From the NCBI GenBank assembly GCA_004022145.1, contig RCNU01000011.1: a stretch of 64,000 nucleotides of DNA; one strand, 5' to 3'. Origin of the DNA: Paecilomyces variotii (lineage: Eukaryota). The first letter of the stretch is position 1. Each line of letters starts with the position of its first letter. A model generated the notes under the pieces. The model was not told the DNA's origin and searched no databases. It worked only from the letters and a program-made list of their open reading frames with translations. A program made the translations under genes and the position numbers. Shown here piece by piece: positions 2,718-54,638 of the stretch.

Positions 2718-2970
2718 CTAGATCGACTGGGTTTTCGGGGTATGGTATATCTTTGTTTTACGGACGGAACGCGTCGCGAGAGAGGAAGATACTGGATTTG
2801 GTCTAATTTCGGTCTAGGCCCCGGGGTTATGTAAGTAAATCCTTATCGCCGCCGTCAACACTGCTTTAATACCTGCTTACCTACCTAGGTAGGTAACTAC
2901 TGCCTGGATTTCTGGATTTATCATAAACATTTCATCGTATGCACCACATCGCCAGAAACACAATAATTCA

Positions 2971-3780: not shown

Positions 3781-4415
3781 TCCCGGGACACGAGATTTAT
3801 AACGAGAGAAATGGATTGATGTGATACAGTTGTGTATAACTAGTAAAACGAAAGAGTTAGTCGACCCAGGAACACAAGCGAGCGTGCATTCTATTTTAAT
3901 CATGCTCCAAACTCCAAAGCCTCTAGCTGACAAAGAAAACTTACATTTCTCTAGACGTCAGCGCCTTGTCTGTTGCTGTTCTTGTTTCAGGCTTGGGGGG
4001 TTGGCGCTAAAACAGAACATAATATTGGTGGAACAGCCTTACTCAAGTATTATTGAAGGGTCTCCATCTGGCATCGACAAATAGATTTCCGCTCATCAAA
4101 CAACCCGGGCAGTAAGAATGCCGCAGCTCTTTATTGAATTTCGCTCAGCAGGGTCTAAAAAAGGACCGACTCCGTGATGCAGGAGCTATACTATCGATTG
4201 TTAAAATCATCTTTGGATTGTGTCGCAGAAGGGACCCTGAGTGGCTAAGGGACGCGGGGGCTATTATTGGAGCTTTGTAACCCTCTCCCAAGACCAGTTA
4301 CTGTCTTTCGAACGCTTCATAGTCTTATTGGTGGTTTAGCAGGGGGCATGCGAATATGAAGCAATCGGGATTCATTGGATTGCACACCCTAAACCGTAAA
4401 AACCCTTTATTGCAA

Positions 4416-29961: not shown

Positions 29962-31053
29962 ATGACTCAGTCCTCTGGCCCTCAGCTCTCTGATAGGTAA
30001 CCATACCTCTGAACCTTTCATAATGAAAAACGACTGATAAATGGCAGGGCTTTCTCTGAATGCCCCATCCAAGTCATGGTTGGCAGTGAAAAGAAAATCT
30101 ACTATATTCATCCTTCAATCTTGACTTCATGCAACTCATCGGTGCTAAATGCGCGAATGACCGGGGGATGGAGGAATAATGATGCAGATAAACCTCTCGA
30201 CTGGACCAATTTTGACGAGGTCACGGTCGAATGTGTTATAAGTTATCTCTACGTTAAGGACTATTACGTACCTGAGCAGACCTTTGAATTTGGGGCATCA
30301 TCTGGAGGTGATACTCAAGGCCAGCCAGAGGAGAAGGTCAAGGGTTAGTTGAATATGCCGCGAATATGAACCCCGCGACTAACTTAGACTCCAGACATTA
30401 AGCCAGTAATTTTTCCTGCGAAAAAGGTCGTAGTCGAGAAAAAGACTCAACCTGATAACGAATTGAAGCGGCCCCTTACTCCCTTGGACAGGTGTCTTGA
30501 AGCTGGATTGCCTGTCAAGACCCGTCCAACTGCTGCTGGAGTCTTTGATCAACTATCCAAACTGCAGAAGGGAAACTCTGGCACGGAAATCCTTACACAT
30601 GCCAAGGTGTACCAGTTTGCGCATTACTTCCTGTTCCCTGAACTAGAAGTGCTCGCTTTACAACGCCTCACACAGGTCCTGCTTGAACTGGATGATTTGA
30701 AAATGCAACATCTATTCCCACAGCTTGCGGATGCCATCCGTGCCGTGTACGGTGGGACTCCGGATACTGCACAAGATCAAGATCCAGCCAGGAAATTGCT
30801 TTCTCAGTTTGTTGCGCTGAAGTACAACTTGCTTTCGGGTGAAGGTCTCGACGCGGTTCTGGCAGAGGAGAGCCAGTTCTCGGTTGACGTAACGCGGAAA
30901 CTCGCTCGACGAATTGCACGTATTGATGAGCTCGAGAAGCGTATTCTTGAGAATGCCAATCAACTTGAAAAAGCGCAAGAGGAGATAACTTTCTGGAGGC
31001 GCAGCACACCTAAGCGTGGCGTGAAATTGACCCCGGATCTCTTGCGATACTAA
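29962..31053 (+). CDS. BTB/POZ domain protein with C-terminal coiled coil
   Basis: Exons about 29962-29996, 30048-30343 and 30395-31053. IQVMVGSEKKIYYIHPSIL, FDEVTVECVISYLYVKDY and HAKVYQFAHYFLFPEL match fungal BTB proteins. Confidence 0.8.
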
Positions 31054-31664
31054 GTCTCTTCCGATACCGGAGGGCTCAATCTGATACGCCGATCTCCAGG
31101 ATCTCCAGAGGCCCGCGATCTGACAGTTTTCATTCGAGTTCACGATCATGTTAATGGGGAGTGGAAGGACCCTCGCTAGTAGCTTGATAGGAGGGATATC
31201 GCTAACGTTGTTATTTACACTTGGCAACTGCAGGTGCTGGTTGGGCTATAGATACCTAGGTCAGATGAGGATGGATATTGGAATAAGGTATCAACGGCTT
31301 CCACCACAGCGGGGGTCGAAAGCTTAGTAGATGCTAGATGGCGCCTTAAAGCAAAGCTGAACTCAATAATATCTATTCTAAGACTCGTGCTGAGTGTGAT
31401 AAGATGCTGATTGATAACTTTGTTCCTACCCCGAAGCCGGCGGTTGATCGGCGTTGCGCGCCAAGACCTGAACATCTCGGCCGATGCTCCGCCGCTGCGT
31501 CACTGATGGGAAACATTTGAGCACATGAAGATACAAACAGAGTCCTGTTGTCTCTTGCTGCGAATGAAATTTGCAGCTAACCCTAGCCTTCAGTTTATCA
31601 TTACAATGTCATCAAGGAACTACTAGTCAATTCCTTTATTGATATTGGCCATTGAGCAGCTTCC

Positions 31665-33802
31665 ATGATGTTCCGCAGCTTCCTTTCCGCTGTTGCGCGC
31701 AGCTCCGCGCGAACACTACGGTCTTCTTCCTGCCACAACACCAGATTCCTTCGTCCAGGACAGCCAGCAATCGGATCTCGAAGTCTCTCTTCCCTGCCAA
31801 ATCTCCCTCTTTTCCGCGCCCTTCGCGATCATGACCCGTCGCACACCGCCGTCGTACACAGCGTCTCTGGCCGCTCATTCACATACAACAACCTCGTGGG
31901 AGATGTACTCCAGACCAAGGAACATTTGACTGCGAAGGGGAACGGGATTGCAGGCGAGCGTGTCGCATTCCTCGCGGAGAATGGATATGACTACGTGGGT
32001 ACTGGCTCTCCCGCCCGTTGTTCTGTTTTGGTATTCATGGGTTGCAAATATTGTGGATGCTATATAGATGTAGAAGGCACGGTCTTTTGCTAATTGGGTC
32101 GCTCTCTAGTGACGTTGCTATCTATCCTTGCGAGCAATGCGATTGCGCTGCCGCTGTCGCCTGCGTTCCCAGCCAGTGAGCTGAAGTATATTATGGATAA
32201 CTCCCAGGCGAAGATGCTAGTTGCTACGGAGAAATACAAGAATAAAGCGGAGGATGTTTTGAAGACAGGTCTAGAGAGGGAGCCAATTTTCGACTTAAGG
32301 CAAAAGACCATGACCGACGCCAGCTCTACAGAATCCGTGGAGTTCCAGAATCTGCACGACGCTGAGTTGAAGGGCGGAATGATGTTGTATACTTCTGGGA
32401 CGACTAATCGGCCGGTAAGCCATGTTTGGGCTTCATGTGCTATGACTCGTGGTCCATTATCTAACTATTATCGAAGAAAGGCGTTCTCATCCCGCAATCT
32501 GCGTTGACAGCCCAGGCCAACTCCCTCATCGAAGCGTGGAAGTACACCCCCGACGACTACCTCCTCCACCTGCTTCCGCTTCATCACATTCATGGTACTG
32601 TCAATGCGATTTTGACACCTCTTTTAGCGGGCTCATCGGTTGAGTTCATGTTCCCTTTCAACCCCACGGCTGTTTGGAATAGGCTTGCTGCTCCATTCCT
32701 GCCCGAGACGGCAGATAAGAACAAGATCAGTTTCCTAACCGCCGTCCCGACTATCTACAACAGACTCATGTCTAGTTTTCCTTCTCTTCCTCCAGCTACA
32801 CAAGAGGCAGCCCGAAAGGCCATCTCTCCGGAGAATCTCCGTCTAAATATTTCCGGTTCAGCTGCCCTTCCCAGCCCGACTAAGAGAGCCTGGAAGGAAC
32901 TCAGCAATGGCAATATCCTACTGGAGCGGTATGGGATGACTGAAGTTGGCATGGCCATCAGTTGCGGGCTCGACTTTGCGGACCGTGTGGATGGTAGTGT
33001 TGGCTGGCCTCTCCCATCTGTGGAAGCCCGTCTGTACGATGCCGATAAGAATGAAGTCATCAAGCCAGGGGAGGAGCTCGACGCTGAAGGCCGGGAACGC
33101 GAAGGCGAGATCCAACTACGAGGACCTACCATTTTCCGGGAGTACTGGGGCAATGAGAAGGCTACACTCGAGACCTTCATGGACAGTGATGATGGTAAAG
33201 GCAAATGGTTCAAGACAGGAGACGTTGCCGTCCGACGACACGTCGAAGGAGCCGGCAAGGGTACCAGCGGAGAATGGGCACGGGGTCCGATGTACTTTAT
33301 CCAAGGCCGTCGCAGCGTGGATATCATCAAGAGCGGTGGTGAGAAGATCAGCGCGTTGGAAGTGGAAAGAGAACTATTATCACTGTGCGTTTGCTCTCTT
33401 CACAGTTCCCCTCTGGTCCGGCTCGTTTTGAAAACTTAACTGACCTTGTAGTCCTCAAATCGCCGAAACGGCTGTTGTCGGTCTGCCATCTGAACAATGG
33501 GGCCAGAAGGTCGTCGCCATCGTCGTGCTCACGCCGGAGGGACAGACGAGCGGCAAGGGAGGCAAACCTTTTAGTGCCCTGGATATGCGGCGCGCATTGA
33601 AGGACCGCCTTGCACCGTATAAGATTCCTCATGAAATGAAGGTCATTGAGGGACAGATCCCGCGGAACGCAATGGGCAAGGGTGAGTTTATCTCTGAGCA
33701 ACTGTACAAGATCTTCATTTTGCTAACCACGCATCTCGATACTCGGATACAGTGAACAAGAAGTCTTTAGTCAAGGAAGTGTTTGGAGACCAGGCAGCGT
33801 AA
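31665..33802 (+). CDS. Acyl-CoA synthetase, ACSF3/malonate-CoA ligase-like (AMP-binding), with mitochondrial presequence
   Basis: YTSGTTNRP|KG, LPLHHIHG, ERYGMTE, WFKTGD, DIIKSGGEKISALEVE and IPRNAMGKVNK motifs; Arg/Ser-rich N-terminus. Confidence 0.9.
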
Positions 33803-34711
33803 ACGCCTGAAGTTCTTCTGTATATGATGTGATGTACATGAGGATAGTTACCATAGATAGTAGTGTATACCAATTTCGAAAGATCACCTACACACCTTGC
33901 TGCCATCTTCGAACCCTGAGTGGAACCATGGAACCCTCGCTTTATCAACAACATAACCAGTGGATCAGGCCAAGAGTTCCGCAATATCGTTTACCGTAGT
34001 TTCGCGAGAATCCAGAGTCCTGATAACAGCGGAAGTACCATAAAACAATGACCAGTAGTAAATTATTGAGGCGCCTGCCAAGATTCCTGTCATTGATAGT
34101 TAGTTAGTTAGCCTGCGGCACAATAATAATTGTTCATTATTATCAATAATTCCGCCCAACACTCCGTAAAGATTTTATCCGGTAAAATTAGGATACCAAG
34201 AAACACAGACCGATCCAGATCTAGATGGTCACTAGCATCCATCTCCAGTCTCGAGATAGCATGGTTAAGCGAGATCCCCGATTCCCCATCGCCCCCCCAC
34301 AACTAACTAATATTCAAAGTGCCACGTGAGGTAAGAAGCCGGCGTTTGCTTATGTTCTATCTTGTAGTCCTGTGGTAACTACATAGTCTTTGTTTCTACT
34401 CCAGATTATTATTAATCAGCGTGATCAGTCTTGGCATTCGATATGTATCTGTATTCAGCGATAGAGGATTCGTTCCACTGTAGTTAATTTTTTTCCTTGC
34501 ACACAGACAGCAGGGTTGCAGTGGCTGTGGCGCCACAGTTATTCATTGTAGCAGCAGCGGGAGAAGTTTGATAGATAGGGGGCCGGAGCGCAGATGAGAC
34601 CTGGCCATTGAGATGGAGGTGTATTGAAGATACGAGAAGAAAGAGGGAGGGAGAAAAGGCGATAAAGGAAAGGCGACTCCTTGTGCATGTTGGAGTTGCA
34701 TTTGTTATCTC

Positions 34712-34868
34712 TGAGAGAGAAAAAGAGAGAGAGGGAGAGAGAGAGGGAACGGTGGGATTTGATTGGCTGCGGAAGGAGGAATGCCAAGACTTGATACGGA
34801 CCAATCGGAGATGAGCGGTGATTGGGTGTTTTTTGTGCGAATTAAATTAATTGATTAATTAATTAATC
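34712..34868. repeat. GA-rich microsatellite and (A/T)TAAT low-complexity tract
   Basis: gagagagaaaaagagagagagggagagagagaggg at about 34713-34747; aattaaattaattgattaattaattaat at about 34840-34868. Confidence 0.6.
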
Positions 34869-36664
34869 TCCCTGTTCGAAGAGAAGAAAAAGAACAACAG
34901 ACGTTGATTTCTTTCTACGACTTCGAAGTCTCACTTATGATATGGGCTGTGTATGTACTGTACTTACAGCTAGCTGATCGACATGTTACACCACACTGGA
35001 TGTTGGTAATAATATCTAGTCCACTCAAGTGTGTCTTACTCCAACGCGTGCTGGGATACCAGAAGGGGTCGTTCCTGGTCTTTGCTGCGCCTGCTAAGCA
35101 CCGTCAAGCTTCACCAAGCCTGTCTATGGCACGGTCCATGCTGGTGCCGTCTTGGAAAGGGACTAACGGGTGGAGAAGCACGGAGTACTCGACGGTTACT
35201 GTACGGTATGAGATTATTGAGCGAGAGAAGATGCCAAGAAGCGTGGCTTCAAGCCAGCTTGCCAAGAAACAGAGGAACTCGGAGCTATACTCGTTATACA
35301 ACTAGTCCCGGAGCGGGCTTCTTGTCAAGACTGGCTTGGTTGGCGAGCAAAGTCCGCAAAGCTGCAATGATAAGACATCCAACAGGGACAGCGAATCAGG
35401 GCAATAATATCATCCTGATTGCAGCGAGTTCCATAGATAACTGCCATACATGCCAGCATAGCTGAACCGGTTCTGTGGGTGTCACCGGATGCGTGGAGGA
35501 CGATCGACAGTGCGTTCGTTTGATCGTGCAACGTTACAGCGACTAGCGGGTTAGACACACCAGGTCTGAGCTTTTGCCCGCGAGATCGCAGACAGCAAGC
35601 CAGAGAGCGGCTGGTACCGACCAATACATGCTACAGCTGTGATCAAAATCATCAAATTGCCTTTCGTAAAAGGAGGCCCCTGCAGCATGATAACGCGGGG
35701 AAAAAAAGAGCGGAGAGAACCGCTCACGAAAGGAAGAACCGGCGGTTGGCATCGGGTGTTTTTGGTATCTTCCTTTCCTCGCGTAGGAATTACCGTTTCG
35801 AGGATGGAGAACAGGCTATCCGGTGGTTTCAATCTGTTCCCCAGGGCTTGAGCGCGACATGATTCAATCAACAAACTTCAGCCGTGTCATTGAGAATATC
35901 CGATCGAAGATTGGAGATTCGTTTGTTCAGCATGGATCCCCGGAATTGACGTGCAATTGAGACTGCCGATTTCACCAGTCATACAGTGGAGGACAGAGCA
36001 CACAACTATGACAGGATCGGGCTAGCATCAGTTGTATAGCCGGTAGTTGCAAGCGCTCCGCAATCAGCAAAGCTCGAGAGCCTCCGGACCAGGGCCAGAC
36101 AGCAAAGTCCATGGGTCCCGGAAACAAAGATGCGTCCGACTTGCTGTCTCACGCGACACTATGGTACTTAGTTAGTCGCCGCAGATAAGAGGCGACCACG
36201 GATCAACAGGCGACTGAAAGAGGTACCAGGCACGATTTCCATTAGATATTATTTACCATACAATGCGCTGGTTTTCTGCTCCGCCAGGATAGCCCGACCC
36301 GGTAAGATTCCAGAAACACTCGCCTGTCTTGCTGCTGCTTCTCTGGACGTTACATTCTGGGTCTCTCCGCTCGGCGGCGCCGAGTCTGTCGTGCTCAAGC
36401 GCGCTGTATCGTACTTGCGATTCGTGGATGGCCTGCTGTTCCCGATCGATCGGCCCGCCAGTGTCAACCGGCGGGCGCGCCTAGGCCCCTCCCGGTCTGT
36501 GTTCAATCCTCGGGAGTCTTGGTCTGTAGTGGAATTGGACTATAAGTCCCCCTCGGGGAACGCTCTCGCACGATCTCCTTGTCTGCTGTGTGCGTGCGAA
36601 AATCTCCCCCCCAGATCGTTGCGCCGGGAAGAGCTCTGCACAAGGCTGTGTCCCATCCATCACC

Positions 36665-38652
36665 ATGTCGACCGGAGACCACGAGTTCGAGGCCGCGTAG
36701 TAAGTGACCCTGCGACGTGTTGTGTCTTGGATGTGAAATTTCCAAAAAATCGGACGAGTGGGCTGATCTCTCTCATGAACAGGCTGCACCAGCAGTTCGA
36801 CAATGTCGAGGGCGCTCATCCTCCGACTGATTTGCTGGGTGGCCCGCTGCCAACGAACCGGGACGTGATCACCGGCGAGAAGATGGTGCAGGGTGAGGTT
36901 GATGAGAAGGCTCCTTCCATCACGCCTGACGGCGAAGAGCCCACTGAGGATGAGAAGCGCACTCTGCGCCATATCGCAGAGCACTTGCCCCTCTCCGCCT
37001 GGCTGGTGGCCGCCGTCGAGCTCAGTGAGCGATTCACCTACTATGGCATGTCGGGTCTGTTCCAGAACTACATCCAGCGTCCTCTTGATGGCAGCGAGGG
37101 TCGTGGTGCGCTGGGTATGGGCCACCAGGGTGCCACTGGTCTGTCGACGTTCTTCCAGTTCTGGTGTTATGGTAAGTTAGGAGGAAGCAAGGCCGGATAC
37201 ACATCGTGGGCCCTGACTGACAAGCATGATTAGTTACTCCTATTTTCGGTGCTATTGTTGCGGACCAGTACCTGGGAAAGTACAAGGCCATCGTGGTCTT
37301 CTGTATCGTCTATCTCGTCGGTCTTCTGATCTTGGTTTGCACTTCGATCCCCACGGCCCTGGCACATGGGGCCGGTCTGGGAGGCTTCGTTGTATCCATC
37401 ATCGTCATCGGTATCGGAACGGGTGGTATCAAGAGTAACGTCGCTCCTCTGGTAAGTCGATAAGGACCCTACCTGTTTCTGTCCCACTGCTAATTCCTTG
37501 CAGATTGCGGATCAATATACCCGCAAGAAGATGGCTATCAAAACCACTCCCAAGGGTGAGCGTGTCATCATCGACCCTGGTGTCACCGTGCAGCGTATCT
37601 ATATGATTTTCTACGGCTGTATCAACCTCGGTTCTCTGTCACTGCTGGCGACCCCTTACATGGAGCTGTACATCGGCTTCTGGTCCGCATACTTGCTCTG
37701 TCTGTGCATGTTCTTCTGCGGTACGGCTGTTTTGATCGTTGGTCGCAAGTACTACATTGTCCGCCCGCCGCAGGGATCGATCATCACCAACGCCTTCAAG
37801 GCCCTTGGTCTAATGGTTGTCCATCGCAACATGGATGCAGCCAAGCCCAGCTGGCAGGCCGCCAACGGAGGCAGGCGGACCAGCCTCCCTTGGGACGACC
37901 ACTTTGTCGACGAGGTCAAGCGTGCCCTGGTTGCCTGCCGCGTCTTCTGTTTCTATCCCATCTACTGGGTTGTCTACGGCCAGTTCTCTGGAAACTTCGT
38001 CACCCAGGCAGGTCAGATGGAGGGCCACGGCATCCCCAATGACTTGATGCAGAACTTCGATCCCATCTCCATCATCGTCTTCATTCCGGTCCTCGAGACG
38101 CTCGTCTACCCGCTCCTGCGCCGTCTCCACATCCCGTTCAAGCCAATCACCCGTATCTCTCTGGGCTTCATCGTCGCTTCGCTGGCCATGATGTACGCTG
38201 CTATCGTGCAGCACATCATCTACAGCTCCGGTCCCTGCTATGACCAGCCGCTGTGTGATGCGTCAATAGTGGACGGTACCGCTCAGGGTAACCACGTGCA
38301 CATTGCCATTCAGACCCCTGCCTACTTTTTCATCGGTATCTCCGAGATCTTCGCCTCCGTGTCTGGTCTGGAGTACGCATACACCAAGGCCCCACCGACC
38401 ATGAAGTCGTTCGTCCAGTCCATGTATCTGCTGACCAACGCCTTCGGTTCTGCTATCGGTGAGGCCCTGACGCCTGTTGCCTACGACCCGGCTATTCTGT
38501 GGATGTTTGTCGGTCTGGCCTGTGCTTCCTTCACCACCGGTATTATCTTCTTCATCCTCTTCCGTCACCTGAATGACAAGGAGGAGGAGATGAACGCGCT
38601 AGATGCCGAAGAATACCCCCCGCCTGTGGCGCCGACTGAGGAGAAGAACTAG
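36665..38652 (+). CDS. PTR2: POT/PTR-family di/tri-peptide transporter
   Basis: ELSERFTYYG (ExxERFxYYG), FWCY|VTPIFGAIVADQYLG, GTGGIKSNVAPL, FYGCINLGSL and LEYAYTKAP motifs; stop 38652. Start ambiguous (ATG 36665, 36775 or 36882; see finding). Confidence 0.93.
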
Positions 38653-39639
38653 ATGCTCTTTTTTCTTCCTTAATTTCATGTATTATACACGCGTCACTAT
38701 ACCAACGAAATGCCTATGCAAGCATGGTTTCTCTTCTCTAACCTCGTTCCTATCGGTTATTGCGGCCATTGTTCCGTTTGTCTGATATATGGCGAAACAT
38801 CGCATGGTGCGGTCTGGAGGTATGTTTCTGCTGGGAAGACGATGCTAGTTGATTTTGTCTATACTCTTCCTGTTTTGCTGCCAGTCAGCGTGTGACTGTT
38901 GTTGTTGGCAATGATTCTGAATGGTCATGCATCCTTTTGAGGCGTCGGGGTTCTGGATGGGATGAATCGTGGATGATGATACCTTCCATGTTGTTACAGA
39001 AACTATAAAAATTCAAAGATACCACAGCGACTCATTGATATTCATCTTCCTTCTCTTCTAAATGCTACCATCAGTATAAGTAAATAAAACTAAATATGCA
39101 TCTGACATGAAGCTCAAATAAGAAGATCAACTCTCACAATCCAGAACAGCGCGTTTCCAGAAACTGTGACCAAGACTAATCAGCCTCGTCACCCACATTA
39201 TCGGCAGATGGTCAATGGAATGGAAGAGTATACTGACAGTTTCTCCAGGCGGGAAAAAGAACTGATCATCATAGTTTTGTACCAGATGATCCATCCCCAA
39301 GAGCAGATTTCCACATGGAAACATACAAACATCTGCCTCAGCGGAAGATATTTACGCTTCCCAATAATGGCAGTGAGGTCGTTATGTCCGCATCTCGAGC
39401 AGTTGGCCACCACTTGAAGGATGGAGAAGCAGTCTCTTTTCTCTGATTATCGGTGCTCTGTCGCAGCTTATCAAGCTTTCCGGTAATCTAGTACTGAAGA
39501 TTTACTGTAAGGTGCAATATTATTCAACATAACTCTGTTTCTCTTTAGCAGCTGCTACCTGACTAGGAGACATCTAGGACAGTATCTCTAAATAGCTATT
39601 TTGTTTACACACGTTACTAGCTAGGATATATCCACATGA

Positions 39640-41013
39640 TTACAACTTCGAAAGATCTCTTTGTGGAACTGCAGTCCATTCAGAGACATTCGCAAAGTCC
39701 ATCACCTTGTTCGGACCTCCAAATCGACCCAGGGTGTCGGCCCAGTTACGCGAGGCTGCTACCCCTGGGTTCCATTTCAGACATTCGTGCATCTTAGGCG
39801 GTATGTTATCCTGCATGGCATCTATGATGGTGCGGCCAATAGTAGGAAGATACTTGAATCCTGGGTTTATTGTCAGTTTCTCTATACATGTGGTTCAAGA
39901 TCACAAGCTACGCCACCTACCTCGACCAGATGCACCGCATCCTAAGACTAGAGACCGGTATTTAGGGTGTCGGTCAATGATAAATTCCCGATTCGCTGTG
40001 TCTGCACACCAACAGATCCGAGCAAAGCTGAATGACCGGTCCGCCAGCTGAGGCATGGTCTCTCGAAGCAGAGCTCTGATGCGACCTTCTGACTCCTTTG
40101 GTATCTGCGTCTTCTCGAAAGGGACACTTGCCAACTCTCCATCCGGTAAGCGGGTCATGTTCGTGTAACCTGGATGCTCGTCACAGAGTTTGATCTCGCC
40201 ATCTTCGTCCGGCTCAAAAAAGAATCCTTTCTCGATGTTGAATATGACGGGGATGTTCTGATACTGCTTTCGCTCCTCCGGTGACAATGCGATATGTGCG
40301 ATTGTCCACGCTGTAGGACGGAGTTGGCCTTGGAAATCGATAAATTGTCCTGCAGCTGCCCCAGCACATAGGATTGTTCTCTCTGCACGGTGAATTTTGC
40401 CGTCCGCGGTCACAACGCCTTTGACGTCGTTGTACTCGAATATCAGCGTGACGACCTGACCTGCAGAACCACCTGCGAGTATCTTCACACCCAGTCGCTG
40501 AGCCTCCTGTGCCGCTGCAGCAAGAGCATTGCGAGCCTGTGCCCATCCAGCACCTTTACGGGTCAGATAGCCTTTCCAGCCGGGGAATTCCCCGCGCAGA
40601 ACACCAGGCGGAGCTAGCTTGCGGAAATCTTCCGGTCGATCAATAGGGACTATGTTATCCTCTTCTCCGGGCCTTACACGTACACCGAGACGTTGCATAC
40701 CAGCTGGTGTAGTTGCAGACATTAACAGGCCGGTGTCGTGGTAATATGGTTTGAAGAGAGGATCGGTCATCCAGGCTCTCATGGCCTCCATTGTTAGGGC
40801 CGTGTTGACATCCACTCGGTCCTGGTCAACGCTGTATTGCCCAGGAGACACGACTTTGTTCACGTCATTTCCAGCAGATATTGGTGAAGGTACCGGATAT
40901 CGATCGAATAGAGTGACGTTCTTATAGCCCTGTCGTGCGAGATGAAGGGCGGTAGACGTTCCCCAGGTGCCTGCCCCGACGATAATGATGGCTGAAGATT
41001 GAGGTATTGACAT
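39640..41013 (-). CDS. Fructosyl-amino acid oxidase (amadoriase II type), peroxisomal
   Basis: IVGAGTWGTSTALHLAR, SAGNDVNK, RPTAWT, CDEHPG, ARICWCADTANREFIIDRHP and CGASGRG|FKYLP closely follow Aspergillus amadoriase II as I recall it. Intron 39920-39861; ends RDLSKL* (PTS1). Confidence 0.93.
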
Positions 41014-41134
41014 GGTCTTTCGGAAGATTGTTGCTGAGTTTTTCGTCTTGAGTAATGGAAGGAAGGGTCGGTTTTTTTGCCAGAGCTCGATATAAGATGT
41101 GGTTTTCTTATCGAACTATGGCTATATATTTACA

Positions 41135-41149
41135 ATCGGTCTCACCGAT
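41135..41149. promoter_or_regulatory. Perfect inverted repeat ATCGGT-CTC-ACCGAT (CGG-N5-CCG), candidate Zn2Cys6 site in the FAOX/OPT divergent promoter
   Basis: Read directly from sequence; inverted CGG triplets are the classic Zn2Cys6 dimer site geometry. Confidence 0.4.
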
Positions 41150-41693
41150 AACGGAGGAATAACGAAGTGCGATACTTTACCATTTCCATGCAATTCTGTA
41201 CAAGCTGCTGTTTCAGAAGGTCCAGGCGATCGTTCCTCGAGTCACGCCACAAGAGGTCCCATTGACTTCAGGTATTTTCTAGTTTATCGGAGACGATATC
41301 GAGCCACGAGACGTTGTTTCGGCCACCGTCCGTCACTTAAGGAGAGGGGAAGTTTGGCCATGGACCAATCAGACCGGCTCGCTTGGACCTTACTTGAAGT
41401 TCGTTCGTATCAATTGAATTCATTCATCCTCCCCGCCTTAGAACTTCGCTTGGACCTGACTGAGATCTAGCTGGGGTCGCTAAGCATTGGAATTCCCCGC
41501 CTTGAACGGGGAATATGGGTTATCTGGACCATGGGAACCGTTCCCAGCGTGTATCTTGGTGGAGCTCTAGATAGCGACTGCTGCGATGGCGGACATCGGA
41601 ACAGCTGTGCACGATGTATAAAGGCTGCCCGCCAGAAAGGACTATGGGAAGGATCCCAGCTGCATTCAGTAATTGAAGTTGATTGACCCGGCC

Positions 41694-44598
41694 ATGGCGT
41701 CTACGCAAGCTGCTTCTCATGAAGGGGATATCGAGGGAGGTGATCGCAAATATCCCTACAGCGATGGAGAGCCTAAGCATGCACCTGTCACTGCTGATGA
41801 GGCGATTGAGATCGCAATCGGTGAGACCAATGTCGAATATACGGTGGAATCCGACAATTCACCCTACCTGGAAGTGCGCGCGAACGTACCAAACACGGAT
41901 GATCCTAGCATTCCCGTCAACACTGTCCGCATGTGGTTCCTGGGGGTAGTCTTTACATTGGTGCGCAGCCGAAACTGGTGAGATACATGTCTGTATACGG
42001 GTAATAGCTAACATGTATGTATAGGTCGGAACCGGAATCAATCAGTTCTTTTCCATGCGATATCCTAGCGTCACGATAACTTCATTGGTAGCACAGCTGG
42101 TCAGCTACCCTGTCGGTTGTATGCTGGCGAAGTCCCTCCCTCTGAAGACTTTCCGTCTTTTCGGGCGTTGGAATTTCGTGTTGAACCCAGACCATCACTT
42201 CAACATCAAAGAGCATGCTGTCATCACTATCATGTCGAATCTGAGCTTCGGCCAATCATGGGTCTGTCATTTCTCCTGAAATTGTATTGTATGGTTGAAG
42301 ATGAATCTGACCAGACCAGGCAAGCGCAATTATTCAAGCGCAAAAGGTCTACTTGCACATGTCCACACCGGTGGGCTACCAGATCCTGTTGGCATTGTCA
42401 ATGCAGATGTTCGGTCTAGGTTTGGCTGGTCTAGCGTACAAATATATTGTCGAGCCTCCACAGATGGTAACGTGCATGAAGCTTGCAGATAAGTATAAGC
42501 TAACTCAAATTTTAGATCTGGCCATCGACACTTGCAAACTGTGCCTTGTTTGAGACTCTGCATAGTGGCGCTAATCCGGTCGCTGACGGCTGGCGGATAT
42601 CCCGATATCGATTCTTTCTGTATGTCCTCGTGGGCGGTTTCTGCTGGTATTGGTTACCAGGTTTCCTGTTCACCGGTCTGAGTACATTTGCATTTATTTG
42701 CTGGGCAGCACCAAGTGAGTATGATGCGGGGTTTAGGAGATCGCCAGGTACTGATGCGCGTGCAGACAATAAGGTACTCAACAATCTCTTCGGGATGACA
42801 ACGGGTCTTGGCTATCTGCCTACCACGTTCGACTGGAGCCAGATTGCATACAACTCGTCACCATTAGTTGTCCCTTTCTGGGCTCAAGCTAATGTCTTTG
42901 CCGGATGGCTCTGCATATATGCTGTAGCCGCACCCATTCTTTATTATACCGGCGTGTGGTATACTTCCTACCTACCCCTCACAGGATCGGACGCATACGA
43001 CAACACAGCGAGCATCTACAAATCCAGCCGGATACTGAACGACAGGGGCGAATTTGACGAGAAGAAGTACCAATCGTATAGTCCGCTATATCTTCCCGTG
43101 ACCTTTTCCCTGTCATACGGCGTAGGATTTGCCGTTCTTAGTTGTCTCCTCACACATGTCATCCTGAATCATAGCAAGGAGATTCTACAAACCTTCAAGG
43201 GATCCAACAAGAAGGATATTCATGCGAGACTGATGTCTCATTACCCCGATGTGCAGTGGTGGTGGTATGGCGGTATGACAGTAAGCTATAGCTCGCTCTC
43301 TTATTTGTGCTAATGCGATAATTGACAAGAGTGCAGTTGATTGTCATAGCTGTATCCATCCTCGTTCAATATGTCTGGCATACCGGGGTTCCATTTTGGG
43401 GAATCTTCTTAACATTCGCCTTGGCGGCTGTCTACGTGATTCCTGTGGGCACCGTCTACGCAGTCGCTAACCTGAACAGCAACGTTCTGACCGTCTTGGG
43501 GGAGATAATCTCCGGGTATCTCTTGCAGGGGAAGCCTCTTGTCATGTTGATATTCAAGGTTGGTGCTATTCAATCCGCGAGGGACCATGTATTGATTAAT
43601 TTCAGTTCTACGCATATACCGGCCTGAGCCAAGCGATGATATATGCTGCCGATATGAAGGTACGACCTCGCTCATCTTTTGGGTCAAGCTTGACTCTAAC
43701 GATTGATTGATAGCTGGCTTTGTACATGAAGATCCCTCGCCGGACCCTGTTCACAGCTCAGCTTATTGCATGCATCCTTGGATCCTTAACCCAAAGTGAG
43801 CTCTTTGCCCCGGTAATTCTTTCAAGATATACTGACGTATGGGAAGATGGCGTGCTCTTGTGGATGCTGGGACATGTGAAGGATGTTTGTTCCAGCGATC
43901 AGTCGGATCATTTCACCTGCCCGCAGGGTAGGGTCAATTATAATAGTGCAATTCTGTGGGGAGGTACGTGTTTACTCGCAGGAGTTAGTATGTCGCCATG
44001 CTGATCGTTTCTGCTGTAGCCATCGGCCCTGGTCGACTCTACAACATTGGCAAGATCTATTCTGGCCTGCTGCATATGTTCTGGATCGGTGCCTTGCTGC
44101 CGATTATCACGTTCTTATTGCGCAAGAAGTTCCCTACTTCGAGATTTCTGAACGCCGTCCACTGGCCCATCTTTTTCGCTGGGACAGGAAACCTTCCTCC
44201 TGCTGTAAGAAATAATGTCATTCGAACTTTGATTGTCGACCATACTGACTACGACATAGACTGGTATCAACTATTCCACCGCGTTCGTCGTCAGTCTTAT
44301 CTTTAACAAGGTGTGTTTTTCAACTCCATAATAGACCAGCAGTTATACTGACACATCAGCACAGATAATTAAGTCGCGAAAGCCTCACTGGTGGAGTAAA
44401 TACAATTACGTTCTGTCTGCTGCGCTCGACTCGGGTGTTGCGACGTCCGCCATTGTCATTTTCTTCACCCTGGTTCTGCCTGGTGTTTCTCTGAAATGGT
44501 GGGGAAATAATGTCAGCAGCAACACGGTCGATGGAAAGGGGACACCGTGGAAGGAATTGGGTGCTAATCAGACGTTCGGGCCTTCTACATGGTCTTAA
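41694..44598 (+). CDS. OPT-family oligopeptide transporter (Isp4-like)
   Basis: NSPYLEVRANVPNTDDP (SPYxEVRxxVxxxDDP), FNIKEHAVITIM, DIHARLM, DMK|LALYMKIPRR, WWSKYNYVLSAALDSG and WWGN motifs; many introns; stop 44598. Confidence 0.95.
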
Positions 44599-45137
44599 TT
44601 TATGATACGTCAATACGGCAATAAGCAGATAGGTTGTAAAGGAAGTTTTAGTTTGGCATCCGTATCTTGTTTTTTCAAAGAGACATCTATGGATCAAAGT
44701 GAATCAGGCGAGCAGGATATGACCAGCATTCAAATTAAAGTAGCGAGGTTGTCTCCTTCTCGTAGACTGTAGTGTCGTGCATCATACTTCTCGACATCTG
44801 ATTGGTGGATCATCTGCTATCGCGGTCGACTCCTCCTTATCAAGCCGAGGTCAGTACTCTCCGTCTCCTCAGTCTCCTCACTTAAGTCTCACTACATGAA
44901 TCTCAGTTCTGCGCTTAGAATGCACTTCTACGCATTCTAGAAGGATCACACCAAGTTCCTGTCTTGGCTATTTCGATTGCGCTGCTGTATTCCTGCGCCT
45001 AGCTCGAGTATCTCCTCCTTAGCGCCGCTCGTCGATTGAGCCCGGCCGGAATTTCCTGCCTGGATATATGTTTGACATCTTGAATGCGGTCCTATTGATC
45101 ATGTAAGACTAAAAGTCTTTCTTTCATTGAATCCTCG

Positions 45138-46898
45138 ATGCCTCGAAAAAGGAGTGCAGACCGTATCGGCCCCCTGAAAACGCGGTCACGCAGCGGCTGC
45201 CAGCAATGCCGCAGCAGCAAGGTCAAGTGCGATGAGAGATTGCCACACTGCACCCGTTGCTGGGAACGCGGCCTGCAGTGCCAGAGAGGCGTGTCATTGA
45301 AATGGGAATCAGAGTACTTGAGTCGTGGTTTAACGTTTGGGAGAGCAGGCGTGTGGAAGAAGGGTCAGGATCAGCATGGGGAATTCGCTGCTGATACGTC
45401 AATATCATCAACATCGCCAACGCTGTCAACGACGACTCTGTACTCGGATGAGTGCCATGAATGGCTTCCTGTACCGCGGGTATATGGATGGAGCTTTATC
45501 AACTCGGATTATGCTACGTTTGAGCAGCCGCGTGCTGTTTCTATTCCAACTAGTCCTTTGACGTATCAAATTGATAGGTCGAAGGATGAGGGTGTTGATG
45601 ATGACGCAGGCTTGGTGACTGTATATCAGCCAAGCAAGAAGGGATGTTTAGTGGCGGTTAAATGCAGCGAGAGGCCGAGGAGATCTCTCTCTATCTTCCC
45701 AGAACTCTCTGGAACGAAACATGCCCAGCTTTTCGACTATTACTTTCAAGCGGTGTGTCCTCGTACCACACCCAGTCAGAAAGAACCGTCTCCTTTCGCC
45801 GCGCTCATTCTTCCATTCTCGACAGTAGCATCGCAGACCCTGGTCAAAGCGATACAGGCACTGGGTGCGTGTCACTGGTCGAAGTCTGACTCGAAATTAT
45901 CTGCGGTTGGTCTTCGCTTCAAATCGGCTGTGCTCAAGGAACTTCGTCACAAGCTCGCCACAGAAGGGCCTTTGAAATGCTCAATGGATACGGAAATCCT
46001 TGTCATTATGATGATGCTCTGCTTGTATGAGATTGTGGATGACTGCGATCAGCGCTGGACTGTGCACCTGCGCGGAGCCAAAGACCTTGTTGCCTTTCGA
46101 AGACAAAGGGAATCTATGTGGCCGTCGCCTAGTATACGCGGCGAGTTAGATTCCTTTTCCGAGGGTTTCTTTGCGTTCCAAGATATAATCGGCCGCACCG
46201 CATGCGGCGAGACTGCAGTCTTTGGCGCAGACTACTGGCGAGGAGATGAGCAGCAGATTAACGTCTGGATGGGATGCAGTCCAGAGTTGGTCTCAATTCT
46301 TTCCATGATAACTGAGCTGAGCCGGTCGAGACGGAGGAATATGAGTGATGATGATGGCTCCTCTTTCTTTCTACCGGCTGCTTCTTTGGAGAACCGCCTC
46401 GACCATCTTCAACAGCTGGCGGCCGATCCTACTGATATTACCCTGATTGCTGCTGCTGATCTCAAGCGCCAGGCGGCGATATTATACCTACACTGTGCCC
46501 TATACGGTGCCTCTCCATCGACTTCGCTGGTCATACAGCTCGTTTGCGAGATCTTGAACAGAGTATCTGAGCTCATTGACCAGGGTATCGTGGCCAGCAT
46601 GACTTGGCCAGTTTTCGTAGCTGCGGTAGAACTCGACCCACTGAATGACGACATTGGAAGGGATACCACTGGTCTACCAATTTCTGGACGGGCTCTTGTT
46701 CTGCGTGCCTTGGAAGCGATGGCCGGGTCTGCTGTCACTAATGTCACTCGTACGCGGGTAGTCATATCGAAGGTCTGGCAGATGCGGGATATGAACACCG
46801 CCGGGACAGGTTTACACGATTTGGGAGAAGATACGTCGCATCTAAATGATTGGGAACGGTATGTTGCTCCTGTGAGCAACGCAATGAGTCTAGCATGA
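45138..46898 (+). CDS. Zn(II)2Cys6 transcription factor (Fungal_trans_2/Acr-2-like)
   Basis: RSRSGCQQCRSSKVKCDERLPHCTRCWERGLQC zinc cluster; LCLYEIVD..WTVHLRGA and WPVFVAAVE; intronless 586 aa. Confidence 0.93.
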   Translation: MPRKRSADRIGPLKTRSRSGCQQCRSSKVKCDERLPHCTRCWERGLQCQRGVSLKWESEYLSRGLTFGRAGVWKKGQDQHGEFAADTSISSTSPTLSTTTLYSDECHEWLPVPRVYGWSFINSDYATFEQPRAVSIPTSPLTYQIDRSKDEGVDDDAGLVTVYQPSKKGCLVAVKCSERPRRSLSIFPELSGTKHAQLFDYYFQAVCPRTTPSQKEPSPFAALILPFSTVASQTLVKAIQALGACHWSKSDSKLSAVGLRFKSAVLKELRHKLATEGPLKCSMDTEILVIMMMLCLYEIVDDCDQRWTVHLRGAKDLVAFRRQRESMWPSPSIRGELDSFSEGFFAFQDIIGRTACGETAVFGADYWRGDEQQINVWMGCSPELVSILSMITELSRSRRRNMSDDDGSSFFLPAASLENRLDHLQQLAADPTDITLIAAADLKRQAAILYLHCALYGASPSTSLVIQLVCEILNRVSELIDQGIVASMTWPVFVAAVELDPLNDDIGRDTTGLPISGRALVLRALEAMAGSAVTNVTRTRVVISKVWQMRDMNTAGTGLHDLGEDTSHLNDWERYVAPVSNAMSLA

Positions 46899-47203
46899 AA
46901 CAGGAGGCTATGCTTGCATATTACACACTGCGGGGTTTATAAGGGGGTACTATCAGTTAAGCTTCTTGTCTGTCTCTATATAGTAGCTTTGTCGTGACGC
47001 TTTGAGAGTTATAGTGTAACATATCTGGATAAGTCTGCTTATGACTTGTTGCAATCTATCTCTTGTGGACGGCGTTTCCGTCACTTTGTTAGATTTTGTG
47101 TAACTGGCAAATGGAGATCTGGATACTTCTCAGATATCTCCATAGTTATTCGCAGGAAATGTCCACTTCCTTTGCGAAAGTTATTCTGCAATATGACCGC
47201 CAC

Positions 47204-48694
47204 TCATCCATATCTTGCATTTTCAATGTCATCGTCAAACCAGACTGGCTTCACTCCGTAATTGATCACTGTGCTCTTCACTTTCGTATAGCTCTCATAG
47301 GCCTCTACTCCATTCTCTTTTCCAATCCCGCTCTCCTTAAATCCACCCCACGGCGACGACGGGTCGTTCAAATGATGTCCATCAATCCATACTATTCCAG
47401 CCTCGATCTGTTCAGCCACGCGATGTGCCTGCGAGAAATCGTTGGTCCACACAGAGGCACCCAGTGCGAAAGACGTCATGTTCGCAACGCGGATGATTTC
47501 CTTCTCATCCGAGCAGCGGATAATAGCGATGACGGGACCGAATACTTCATTGCAAGCCAAGTGGGAAGACTCAGTAACTGAGATGATTGTCGGTGAAAAG
47601 AAAAACCCTTTTCCATCGACGGAAGTCGGCTTGCCGCCACAGAGAAGCGTTCCGCCTTCCTCTACAGCGCGGTTGACGAAGGATGAACATCGCTCCACGG
47701 CTGCTTTGTTGATGACTGCTCCTATCTGCGTCCGGTCGTCTGTTGGAGTGCCGATTCGGAGTGACTCGACTCGCTTTACTAGCAGTTCAACGAAGGCATC
47801 GTACATGTCGTTATGCACTAGCAGCCTACTACCCGTAACGCATGTTTGACCACTTGCAATGAAACTAGCGAATAGAGCTGCCCTGACGGCATCTTCGACG
47901 TTCACGCTTGGAAAGAAACACACTGGTGCCTTGCCACCAAGCTCTGCCGTGATGGGAATCATGTTCGTTGAAGCATTGGGCGCAATGGCCTTGTAAGTTG
48001 CCAATCCACCCGTGAGATCGATCTTCGATAGGTAAGGATTCTCGCAGAGATATTTGCCGGTCTCACGCCCGTAACCGCAGATGATCTGTAAAGTGCCATC
48101 CGGCAATCCGGCCTCTTTGAAGAGTGCACCGAGTCTCAGGACGGAAAGAGGCGCCAACTCTGATGGCTTCACGATCACGACGTTTCCCGCTGCTAGTGCA
48201 GCTGCGATTTTCTTCGTTGCAATCAACAACGGATGATTCCATGGTGTGATCTGCGCGACGACTCCAAGTGGCATTCGCGTCAATGTATTGACCACAGGGC
48301 CTTTGAATGGTGTTACTCGTCCTTCGTGCACTCTAGCTAAAGATGCGAAGTACTCCAACCATTCTGGTATTCGGGCCAGCTGAGCACGCATCTCACGGAT
48401 AGGACGCCCCGTCTGAAGGGTTTCGAGCTCGACGAATTCTGGGATCCGAGAGCGGAGAAGAACTGCTGCGTTGGAGAGCACAGAGAAGCGCTCTGAGGCG
48501 TCTGCTTTTGACCACTTCCCATTGTGAAATACGTTGAGTGATGATAGCACGATCTCATTGACGGTCTCTTGAGGTGTTGCGTCGATAGTGGCGATGGGAG
48601 CTTCTGTCGCTGGATTGAGGACCGTTACTCGTTCGGACGTGGGAGGCGCCTGAGAACCGTCAATCCAGTTGGAGATGTGAGGGAGATCGGACAT
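47204..48694 (-). CDS. NAD(P)-dependent aldehyde dehydrogenase
   Basis: ITPWNHP, VKPSELAP, GYGRETG, AELGGK (general base), SGQTCVTGSR (catalytic Cys), EVFGPV and PWGGFKESGIGKE; intronless 496 aa. Confidence 0.95.
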   Translation of the reverse strand: MSDLPHISNWIDGSQAPPTSERVTVLNPATEAPIATIDATPQETVNEIVLSSLNVFHNGKWSKADASERFSVLSNAAVLLRSRIPEFVELETLQTGRPIREMRAQLARIPEWLEYFASLARVHEGRVTPFKGPVVNTLTRMPLGVVAQITPWNHPLLIATKKIAAALAAGNVVIVKPSELAPLSVLRLGALFKEAGLPDGTLQIICGYGRETGKYLCENPYLSKIDLTGGLATYKAIAPNASTNMIPITAELGGKAPVCFFPSVNVEDAVRAALFASFIASGQTCVTGSRLLVHNDMYDAFVELLVKRVESLRIGTPTDDRTQIGAVINKAAVERCSSFVNRAVEEGGTLLCGGKPTSVDGKGFFFSPTIISVTESSHLACNEVFGPVIAIIRCSDEKEIIRVANMTSFALGASVWTNDFSQAHRVAEQIEAGIVWIDGHHLNDPSSPWGGFKESGIGKENGVEAYESYTKVKSTVINYGVKPVWFDDDIENARYG

Positions 48695-51273: not shown

Positions 51274-51975
51274 CTAGTCTCCACGCTCCTCGTTATTTTT
51301 CTCATCGAAGCAGATACACAAGGCAGCGATAAGCGCAGCATCGATGCCTGGAGCGACCTCCACTGCATAGGTCTGCTGGCCGAATACCATGTCGCGGCCA
51401 CTCAGTAGTTTCCGATTGATGCGCGCCACCGTGTGGCCAGTCTTCTCATCTACGATATCTGCGCTGTGGTCAAACCAGCCGCCCTTGATTCTGAAGGTCT
51501 CAGCCTTGCCGGTCGACGAGGTAAAGACTGCGGTAGCCTTTGAACCGAGTACTAACTCTAGTCAGTAGGAATGATACTATACCTAGCAATAGTATATAAA
51601 TCTCTCGCAGAGAGCTTGAGCAGAACTCTACTGATAGTCAGGGACGACGCATGCTTACACGTAAGATTGCTCTTCACTTCCAGTATCGTCCTTCTGTGGG
51701 TGTCTTCCACTGCGTATGTTGCATGGAGATGCAGATGCTCCTTGACGATATCAAACAGGTGCTTGCCGTTCGCGTCGGAAACTTTCTTACGGCCAGAGAG
51801 GCTCACCCACGCACCATGTACCTTCAGAAGCGGTTCGCCGCTAAGGAGTTTGATGTCGAAGCTGTCTCCGGAGACCGAGAGCACTTTTTCGCGAAGGACA
51901 AGGGTCTGTGTGTCCTTCGATACGAACTGGTCAAAGATGCCCCCTCTCAGGCTGAAGGTAGGGCCTACTACATAT
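51274..51975 (-). CDS. LURP-one-related / tubby C-terminal-like (DUF567) protein; 5' end damaged or unresolved
   Basis: GIFDQFVSKDTQTLVLREKVLSVSGDSFDIK, SLSGRKKVSDANGKHLFDI, intron, GSKATA...KGGWFD and QTYAVEVAPGIDAALIAALCICFDEK; stop 51274. No in-frame ATG found upstream. Confidence 0.78.
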
Positions 51976-52113
51976 ACCACTACCGCAAGCGCCAGATTAT
52001 GTGATTTATTTGTCAGCGAATGCTAGTTACTGAAATTACAGTAGTCAACTCATCTCTCCCTTTTTTCCACTTGGCTTTTAATCTAAGGCTGTCCCAAAGA
52101 CGATTAACACAGC

Positions 52114-52853
52114 ATGTTCCACAGCTTTCTTCGTCGCATGCACGGCCCTACGTGTGGCATGCCACGTTTCCCGAATCGTCGAGCTTTCTCATACGTGTCA
52201 ACGCACCAAGTGTTTCCAGCAAGCTTGTATCGATTTCAGCTGCACCGCGACTCAAAGCTTTATGACAGAGCCACCGAACAGAATGACTCGGAGTATGAAG
52301 ATGGAGTTGAAATCTCTGCGGACGGCTTGGTGCATCCGAATATTACAGCTGATTGTATGCAAGAGCGAATTCACACTTTTCGCCTGCTAACTTATTCAGT
52401 TTCTAACGGCGCATTACTTATGCCAAACACGCACTTTATGCAAGAGATCACACGAAGGTCATTCGATCACTACTTAGATATCGTGGAAAGTGGTCAATCC
52501 ATCACGGCCGAACCACATTATCTGTGCATACCTAAAGGTGATTAAACCCCTTGTCGTAATGTGCAAAGCTAATTTATCTCTACTCAAGGCACCACTATTC
52601 CAGAGTCATTAATTCTTTTCCGTGAGCGCACTTCTCGCTTCTCCCTTCAGCCTGCACGTCCGATGTCACTGGATAGTATGTTCAAGAGATCCCCTTCGAG
52701 AGATAGAATTACTGACAGGGTCAAGTTTTGAACAAAACGTTGACTCAGTTTTATTTTGACTATGGACGTGTTTTTAACCCAGATGACTGGCTTGGTAGAC
52801 ACCCCTACCATGAGGCATCTTTTGACGATCAGGAAGAGTGGATGAACACATAA
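52114..52853 (+). CDS. Tse2-like ADP-ribosyltransferase-fold protein, paralog A (triad degenerate)
   Basis: Introns 52355-52399, 52538-52588 and 52676-52725. FPASLYR...SNGALLMPN...CIPKGTTIPESLILFRERTSRFSLQPARPMSLDILN matches the Tse2 pattern LYR/GxS/IPxGTxIP/HYxxxPxxPM. Confidence 0.78.
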
Positions 52854-53514: not shown

Positions 53515-54146
53515 TTACTCAGTTGCCTGAGGGTACCGCTGCAGCCATTCGTCCTTGGTGAATCGCTGCCCCTTGGTGGTCAGAAAATCATTGATCTTTG
53601 AGTTCAGTTCTTTGTTTAATTGTCAGCAAGTACTTTCTTTTTGATGTTAGAGGTATATATTACCTTCCACTGTCATCTCCTCTCGGGCTTGCAATGAGTA
53701 ATGGTCGCCAAACTCGTGGACGAGAATGAGATCGTCAGGCAAAACAGTCCCTGTACAGGTATCGGATGAATAAAGACCAGAGGCTTCAGGAAAGTTAGGG
53801 GACGAACCTGCTGGAATGGCGTAGACATAGATCGAAGAGCCCCGGAAAGTGCGAACGAGATTCTGCTGTATTTCAGAGTTGGGGCGCATGGAAGCACCGT
53901 TTGGCCCTGGACCGATATATTAGTGACGTGAATTAGATATCTTGGATCCATAAATAATGTACATTCATAAGTAGCCGGATTGAGAGCCTTAGGTTGAACC
54001 TTTCCTGCGGTTGTAAGAAGATCGAAGCTGCGTTTCGGTCGCACAGGGCCTGGCTGAGCGCGGAGGCGAACAGTAGCCCCTGTGTTCAGGCGGAACAGCT
54101 CCTTTGGGACCTGAGTGAAAGACTGAATGAATCTGTTGATAGACAT
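53515..54146 (-). CDS. Tse2-like ADP-ribosyltransferase-fold protein, paralog B (R-S-H intact)
   Basis: Introns 53962-53907, 53807-53751 and 53663-53610. PKELFR...WPNGASMRPN...AIPAGTVLPDDLILVHEFGDHYSLQAREEMTVEELN...EWLQRYPQATE*. Confidence 0.82.
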
Positions 54147-54638
54147 CTTGATAGATTGAAACAGAAAGATTGGATAGAATGCTTGGAGTAATTCGGTCTG
54201 TTGGGAGATGGCAGTGTCAGGGTGGCCTATCTTGGGGTGGATGAAGATGATTAATTCTCTCTAGCTAGCTAACTGTGGATAAGACCAATGTCACGTGACA
54301 TCTAGTGCAACAACAATAACCGCCGAGAAACATGAGACACAAGATCTAGACGGATATCCAGAAACGACTAGACTCACCCATCCAGCTGACTCACCGGGAG
54401 ACCACAGTTCCAAAAAGTCTTCCATCGTGGCTATAAGAATCTGCTCCAACTCTCTTTGTCAGTTGTAAGATAGGTACATACAATATCCAACAGCCGATCC
54501 CTATGCATGATGGCTGGCAATCTCCGATCCGCTAAAGTCATACAACTCCTGTCGTCGCGGCCAACATCCAGTCGGGGCATTTCAATCAAGACGTCCATCA
54601 CATATAAAAGGCGCTTTCGGCACCAGTCACCCCGAACC

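Follow-up and report, generated by a model that had tools for sequence, protein, structure and literature searches.

The 64,000-nucleotide stretch of Paecilomyces variotii DNA analyzed here (contig RCNU01000011.1 of assembly GCA_004022145.1; the whole stretch is called the window below) carries a gene for a fructosyl-amine oxidase (FAOX) between genes for two peptide transporters, of the POT and OPT families, followed by genes for a Zn2Cys6 transcription factor and an aldehyde dehydrogenase (ALDH). A preliminary description made from the sequence had listed these as five consecutive genes at positions 36665–48694 and had proposed that they form a cluster for the use of glycated amino acids and peptides. 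Gene models and Pfam searches confirmed the order and the strands of the five genes in this interval. FAOX is located on the minus strand (41004..39921 and 39860..39640; PF01266, DAO, E 2.6e-37), and the OPT gene is located on the plus strand (41694..44598; 11 exons, a model of 786 residues; PF03169). The two genes diverge, as had been described, across a spacer that the gene-model coordinates place at 41005..41693; its length is 689 bp instead of the 680 bp first given, and it is presumed to be a shared promoter region. The regulator gene follows on the plus strand (45138..46898) as one exon and encodes the domains Zn_clus (PF00172, E 6.1e-09) and Fungal_trans_2 (PF11951, E 2.6e-71). When conserved linkage was examined in metagenome loci and in the gene order of Eurotiales, the proposed cluster was upheld for FAOX with the regulator and for FAOX with a transporter, and it was not upheld for ALDH and POT.

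We compared the translation of FAOX exon 1 with proteins of known structure and found that residues 2–362 matched amadoriase II of Aspergillus fumigatus (PDB 3DJD) with an E-value of 7.7e-191 (637 bits), compared with 1.4e-133 for amadoriase I (4WCT) and approximately 1e-60 for fructosyl peptide oxidases. By sequence comparison, FAOX is thus the orthologue of A. fumigatus amadoriase II. Its single intron (39920..39861, 60 nt, GT..AG) was evident in the sequence and was also found as an RNA joint (39859/39920) in the run termed X1, and the translation ends in DLSKL followed by a stop codon, that is, with the C-terminal SKL of a type 1 peroxisomal targeting signal (PTS1). The earlier assignment of an amadoriase II-type oxidase ending in SKL was therefore confirmed by both the structural match and the translation. 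A cysteine at exon-1 position 331 aligned with the first cysteine of the stretch RICWCADT in 3DJD; this cysteine was invariant in an alignment of 21 FAOX sequences, and we take it to be the residue that carries covalent flavin adenine dinucleotide. Exon 1 was 100% identical to a P. variotii protein named fructosyl amine:oxygen oxidoreductase, and orthologues with 64–75% identity were found in Aspergillus, Monascus and a few Penicillium species. The substrates of amadoriase II are fructosyl amino acids in free form and not peptides, and fungal amadoriases are used worldwide in assays of glycated hemoglobin (HbA1c) and glycated albumin. The faoA gene of A. nidulans is reportedly induced by fructosyl amines, as the title of one study puts it, and an A. 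oryzae strain with a FAOX knockout is said to have lost growth on fructosyl-valine. A passage in PMC5813194 gives the reaction of the family as the conversion of an Amadori compound into an amine, glucosone and H2O2.

The OPT gene was recognized from PF03169 matches on three exons (E 3.8e-64, 2.5e-11 and 9.5e-08), a domain that it shares with the fungal OPT family of isp4/Opt1-like proteins. Eight of its introns were found as RNA joints in X1 and two were inferred, giving an open model of 786 residues that showed 48% identity over 770 columns to a 775-residue Colletotrichum OPT named isp4-like. Characterized substrates of this family are oligopeptides and glutathione; to our knowledge, Amadori compounds and glycated peptides are not among the substrate classes of OPT proteins, and our search of the literature found no paper on the substrate of the window OPT. 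An OPT gene lies at the same place in other species. In A. niger, An11g05340 is FAOX, and the next tag, An11g05350, bears the name ‘oligopeptide transporter optE’ in a published table (PMC11802824); optE occupies the same position beside FAOX as the window OPT, its orthology being read from position and not from a tree. In A. oryzae, an OPT fragment with 76% identity to the window OPT had accessions two away from those of FAOX in four assemblies. The gene between FAOX and the regulator could be named in three species only (the window, A. niger and A. oryzae), and wherever it could be named, the gene adjoining FAOX was an OPT gene.

We then examined the distance between FAOX and the regulator in named genomes, where the order of the genes was deduced from that of their GenBank accessions, from locus tags and from equally sized contigs, and not from DNA. 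The method was calibrated on P. variotii, for which the window gives the order FAOX, OPT, regulator, ALDH, and for which the tags are DTO212C5_5603 (FAOX) and _5606 (ALDH) and the accessions KAJ9268275 (FAOX) and KAJ9268277 (regulator). FAOX and regulator accessions were two apart in many strains of P. variotii, in A. turcosus (RHZ61298/96), A. eucalypticola (PWY82501/03), A. tubingensis (five assemblies), A. neoniger and A. costaricaensis, as were the tags of P. lecythidis (004562 and 004564) and the protein numbers of A. carbonarius (204591 and 204589). For A. udagawae, the distance was two in one of three assemblies, and four and five in the other two. These readings show that, in Paecilomyces and in two sections of Aspergillus (Nigri and Fumigati), a single gene lies between FAOX and the regulator. 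Weaker indications came from equally sized contigs bearing the two genes in A. heteromorphus, A. glaucus, Penicilliopsis zonata, A. saccharolyticus and A. ambiguus, and from Logan contigs of 27,970 and 10,366 bp. The regulator of A. oryzae was not located by accession and tag look-ups. An A. udagawae protein named ‘glutathione transporter 1’, which had seemed to hint at an OPT neighbor, proved to be a misnamed regulator.

To extend the comparison beyond Eurotiales, metagenome contigs were scanned with a FAOX alignment, which yielded 98 relatives; 80 loci were kept and dereplicated at 95% nucleotide identity into 61 groups with 505,616 bases of flank, 14 of them with at least 5 kb on both sides. 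A tblastn search with the window regulator gave matches in 13 of the 80 loci, 12 of which were strong (37–43% identity over 312–585 query residues, 187–432 bits, and full length where the contig allows). The strong matches corresponded to eight of the 61 groups (L004/5, L011/12, L035, L037/38, L043, L045, L049/50 and L063), and the remaining match, in L057, was weak (25% identity) and lay beside a distant FAOX-like gene. In all eight groups, the regulator homologue was found directly upstream of FAOX on the opposite strand, so that the two genes diverge, with a gap of approximately 430–830 bp on contigs that include the starts of both genes. Two of the homologues, those of L004 and L049, were checked with Pfam and contained both Zn_clus and Fungal_trans_2. 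A second Fungal_trans_2 factor in L012 served as an internal negative control; it gave no match to the window regulator, which indicates that the regulator match is not generic.

According to their FAOX sequences, the regulator-linked loci comprised Aureobasidium-like loci (87–93% identity to A. melanogenum), a further Dothideomycete-like clade (62–69% to Phyllosticta) and one Leotiomycete-like contig (67% to Botrytis); adjacency of FAOX and the regulator was accordingly found in three fungal classes. Judged by these sequence matches, the FAOX-regulator pair is shown to span Eurotiales, Dothideomycete-like and Leotiomycete-like fungi. We also computed a quick maximum-likelihood tree of FAOX with 87 rows (the window, 34 of 120 named homologues and those 52 of the 61 locus representatives that have at least 300 residues), in which the window FAOX and its section Fumigati orthologue fell into the same clade. 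All eight regulator-linked groups were placed inside one clade of 45 rows, which is not strongly supported (88 in the Shimodaira–Hasegawa-like approximate likelihood ratio test, SH-aLRT) and within which the Eurotiales amadoriase II clade (support 100) is nested as well. The 23 locus rows of the 45-row clade were divided into eight with the regulator, seven without it that have at least 3.6 kb of upstream sequence, and eight that are too short to decide. Among the 29 locus rows outside the clade, none had a strong regulator match.

A transporter of another family was found where the OPT gene might be expected. Searches of the 80 loci with OPT (the full 786-residue query), ALDH, POT and an AMP-binding protein from the window returned no match (tblastn, E 1e-2). 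When the open reading frames flanking FAOX were clustered de novo, one MFS_1 orthogroup was found beside FAOX in seven of the 61 groups. Five of these (L004, L049, L012, L063 and L038) had the order MFS (–), regulator (–), FAOX (+), with MFS approximately 4–5 kb upstream of FAOX, and MFS was present in every regulator-linked group with contig sequence beyond the regulator (five of five). The other two, the Penicillium-like L013 and L032, had MFS in divergent orientation beside an amadoriase I-like FAOX, and no regulator. Identity of the FAOX-linked MFS between Penicillium-like and Dothideomycete-like loci was 46–57%; the protein is unrelated to another MFS cluster in the flanks, has no counterpart in the window, and is named in the protein atlas with generic MFS labels only. 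On the present sequence evidence, the arrangement in Eurotiales is one in which OPT lies between FAOX and the regulator, and that in Dothideomycete-like fungi is one in which the regulator faces FAOX and MFS follows.

Just beyond the MFS gene, at about 1400–4100, L012, L038 and L063 carry a gene for an M20 peptidase and a second Zn2Cys6 (Fungal_trans_2) gene. The M20 genes beyond the FAOX-linked MFS belong to one Dothideomycete-like lineage, and a peptidase at this place could fit the processing of glycated peptides.

The two outer genes behaved differently. The POT/PTR2 gene (36775 or 36883..38652, plus strand; PF00854, E 1.2e-69 on the large exon) is present on the strand described; its start codon is uncertain between two in-frame ATGs at 36775 and 36883, and the start first given, 36665, lies slightly upstream of both. 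The preliminary description had allowed that POT may be a mere neighbor, and this was borne out, given that no POT gene was found in the 80 loci and that the A. niger tag one below FAOX, An11g05330, is a Dpp1-like diacylglycerol pyrophosphate phosphatase (PMC3722221). The ALDH gene (48694..47204, minus strand, one exon; PF00171, E 9.1e-150) gave its best PDB matches, at approximately E 1e-99, to betaine-aldehyde and hydroxymuconic-semialdehyde dehydrogenases. Its translation contains AELGGKAP and GQTCVTGSR, presumably the motifs of the catalytic glutamate and cysteine, and ends in ENARYG, without a PTS1. ALDH showed 74–80% identity across Leotiomycetes, Chaetothyriales and Eurotiales, compared with 53–59% for FAOX and about 42% for the regulator at similar distances; such conservation fits a general housekeeping enzyme and suggests, as far as sequence can tell, that ALDH has a housekeeping role.

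ALDH lies next to the regulator in three cases only: P. variotii, P. lecythidis (tag 004565) and one Logan contig of 11,572 bp, on which OPT, regulator and ALDH all seem to be present. Elsewhere in Eurotiales, in 12 or more species, the ALDH orthologue is either far from FAOX and the regulator or on another contig. For example, ALDH and FAOX are An11g10290 and An11g05340, or EHA20066 and EHA19675, in A. niger, BAE60353 and BAE58870 in A. oryzae RIB40, and MPDQ_007500 and _005624 in Monascus purpureus. The two genes are also distant in A. flavus, A. udagawae, A. felis (two assemblies), A. brasiliensis (two assemblies) and A. alliaceus, and ALDH is on another contig in A. heteromorphus, A. saccharolyticus, A. 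homomorphus, A. bertholletiae, A. clavatus and A. mulundensis. In Capronia coronata, the tags of ALDH and FAOX are 18 apart. The membership of ALDH in the cluster as a glucosone-disposal enzyme, as first proposed, was not supported, given this dispersal and the lack of ALDH in the 80 FAOX loci. By sequence and position, ALDH and POT are best described as lineage-specific neighbors and not as conserved members.

Four RNA runs had sequences over the window, all of them in the form of assembled contigs, which makes it impossible to rank the genes by expression. Contigs of X1 with GT..AG or CT..AC splice joints covered all five genes, which indicates transcription of each of the five in one or more samples, and one X1 contig spans the convergent regulator and ALDH genes. 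Another X1 contig, across 39920–41959, is unbroken through the FAOX-OPT spacer and contains spliced introns of both genes; overlapping long 5΄ ends, antisense transcription and assembly across residual DNA are possible explanations for it. Run X5 had pieces over OPT and ALDH and left FAOX nearly uncovered, a pattern that, in assembled contigs, is no evidence on expression. Runs X2 and X3, from libraries labeled as food-fermentation metatranscriptomes, contained long unspliced contigs that are collinear with the window and approximately 98% identical to it. These are probably DNA of a close relative inside RNA libraries, and they show only that the order of 31001–43768 is kept in that relative.

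Elsewhere in the window, an AMP-binding (acyl-CoA synthetase-like) gene at 31588–33752 has four introns, with RNA joints in two runs. Pfam searches also identified two open reading frames with a Tse2-like ADP-ribosyltransferase toxin domain, at 52108–52545 (plus strand, E 3.6e-14) and 53673–54260 (minus strand, E 4.1e-05), a pair that is unusual in a mould genome. A LURP-one-related reading frame (51558–52022, minus strand) adjoins the pair.

Taken together, we consider it slightly better than an even chance (a probability of roughly 0.55) that a peroxisomal FAOX, the divergent OPT and the Zn2Cys6 regulator form a functional module, of three genes and not five. In such a module, the regulator would sense fructosyl amines and switch on the oxidase and the transporter. 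The OPT would import glycated amino acids or short glycated peptides, the latter of which would have to be cut by intracellular peptidases before the oxidase could act. Within peroxisomes, the oxidase would release the amino acid, glucosone and H2O2, and Amadori compounds would become usable as a nitrogen source. The occurrence of two unrelated transporter families with the same enzyme-regulator pair argues for a module of uptake and catabolism and not for chance. A farther-reaching version, which we put forward tentatively and as distinctly less likely than the module itself, is that the regulator is an ancient fructosyl-amine-responsive factor whose pairing with amadoriase II-type oxidases predates the split of Eurotiomycetes, Dothideomycetes and Leotiomycetes, that its transporter partner was swapped between MFS (in Dothideomycetes) and OPT (in Eurotiales), and that OPT proteins of the optE clade would be the first eukaryotic importers dedicated to Amadori compounds or glycated peptides.

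Several observations weigh against the three-gene module. FAOX and the regulator are unlinked in A. nidulans and A. puulaauensis, where the regulator is flanked by genes for a cytochrome P450 and a 655-residue protein, and in P. alfredii, where the two occupy separate contigs; and the seven loci of the 45-row clade described above lack the regulator within at least 3.6 kb upstream of FAOX. Accession order and equal contig sizes are indirect readings of gene order, and common descent could keep microsynteny within Eurotiales without selection. We listed CGG/CCG dyads in the eight regulator-FAOX spacers and four window promoters, and found neither a dyad nor an over-represented 8-mer common to the window promoters themselves or to the two sets; CGG-N6-CCG was common only to five closely related loci and was absent from the window. 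Sharing of 8-mers between the FAOX-OPT spacer and the regions upstream of the regulator, ALDH and POT was within the range of shuffled sequences and no higher than for five control regions. The RNA runs, as assembled contigs, cannot show co-induction. Finally, the known substrates of OPT proteins and those of amadoriase II do not correspond, which means that one has to assume a peptidase step or else an unusual substrate for the OPT. With regard to the A. nidulans locus, the 655-residue neighbor was considered as a possible OPT and was ruled out, having no match in the window; the old annotation AN2125.2 (1745 residues) fuses the P450, the regulator and this protein.

These points leave some room for an explanation in which adjacency has no functional meaning, that is, in which the OPT is a general transporter, the regulator controls other genes and the Eurotiales trio is kept by descent. 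Such a situation would agree with the results of the promoter searches and with RNA data of this kind, where neither a motif nor an expression link was found, and with the regulator orthologues (47–55% identity) of many Penicillium species and of section Nidulantes, for which linkage to FAOX is absent or unproven. In addition, a table of A. niger data shows optE upregulated when anafp is overexpressed and has no entry for the oxidase. However, Dothideomycete-like and Leotiomycete-like loci that otherwise have no gene in common with the window also carry the regulator-FAOX pair, the trio is kept between Paecilomyces and A. niger while the flanking genes differ, and a transporter is again attached in other classes, from a different family. 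We therefore regard adjacency without shared function as rather unlikely, and it remains the strongest competitor of the three-gene module.

It is less probable still that the module is real and acts in nature on N-substituted amino compounds or peptides other than Amadori products, such as opine-like compounds or N-alkyl amino acids. Close FAOX homologues are named L-pipecolate, sarcosine or saccharopine oxidase, fmpA and other amino-acid oxidases from secondary metabolism belong to the family, and an OPT suggests peptide-like cargo. However, the window FAOX matches, at E 7.7e-191, an amadoriase II that has been defined both biochemically and structurally, and the same set of 90% clusters contains an A. 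terreus protein with the name ‘fructosyl amino acid oxidase’ (characterized entry Q92204). The growth defect on fructosyl-valine reported for the A. oryzae knockout also speaks for Amadori compounds.

Least probable of all is a pathway of four or five genes in which ALDH oxidizes glucosone, for example to 2-ketogluconate, and POT may provide a second import route: ALDH is transcribed (X1), adjoins the regulator in the three cases given above and matches L-sorbosone dehydrogenase, an ALDH-family enzyme that acts on an osone, at E 1.2e-86, well below its best matches, but its orthologues lie away from FAOX in other Eurotiales, neither it nor POT was found at E 1e-2 in any of the 80 FAOX loci, it has no PTS1 and its conservation is that of a housekeeping enzyme, so that the idea of a glucosone-detoxifying ALDH is not supported and could apply, very improbably, only as a Paecilomyces-specific recruitment.

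If the three-gene module is real, the regulator and the two alternative transporters would be the first named candidates for the uptake and sensing of glycated amino acids in fungi, and the module would provide a clean example of a conserved catabolic unit with an exchanged transporter. Maillard products are plentiful in fermented foods and the organism occurs in food-fermentation samples; thus, the module may be important when the fungus grows on food that has been heated or stored. The enzyme itself is already known. Amadoriase II of A. fumigatus (3DJD/3DJE), which has the same fold, family and conserved cysteine, was described as an enzyme only. In the literature that we searched (without subscription journals and supplements), we found no paper tying a fungal amadoriase to a transporter or regulator gene, and nothing on fungal import or sensing of amadoriase substrates. 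What appears to be new, in comparison with catabolic mini-clusters and bacterial Amadori operons, is the candidate linkage of transporter and regulator.

The logic of an importer, a catabolic enzyme and a regulator is the same in the santhopine utilization genes (soc/moc) of Agrobacterium, and the frl system of E. coli shares it for fructoselysine. The E. coli Amadori route, as set out in PMC2674406, uses a fructoselysine 6-kinase and a deglycase, and no oxidase. The transporters and regulators of bacterial Amadori operons belong to unrelated families, and the fungal module differs from these operons in consisting of three separately transcribed genes with a peroxisomal oxidase. Among fungi, the prn (proline) and qut (quinate) clusters of A. 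nidulans group an enzyme with its own permease and a pathway-specific Zn2Cys6 factor, two of the genes being transcribed divergently from the promoter region between them. Compared with these mini-clusters, the candidate module described here would add Amadori compounds as a new substrate class and a transporter partner that varies, being OPT in Eurotiales and MFS elsewhere.

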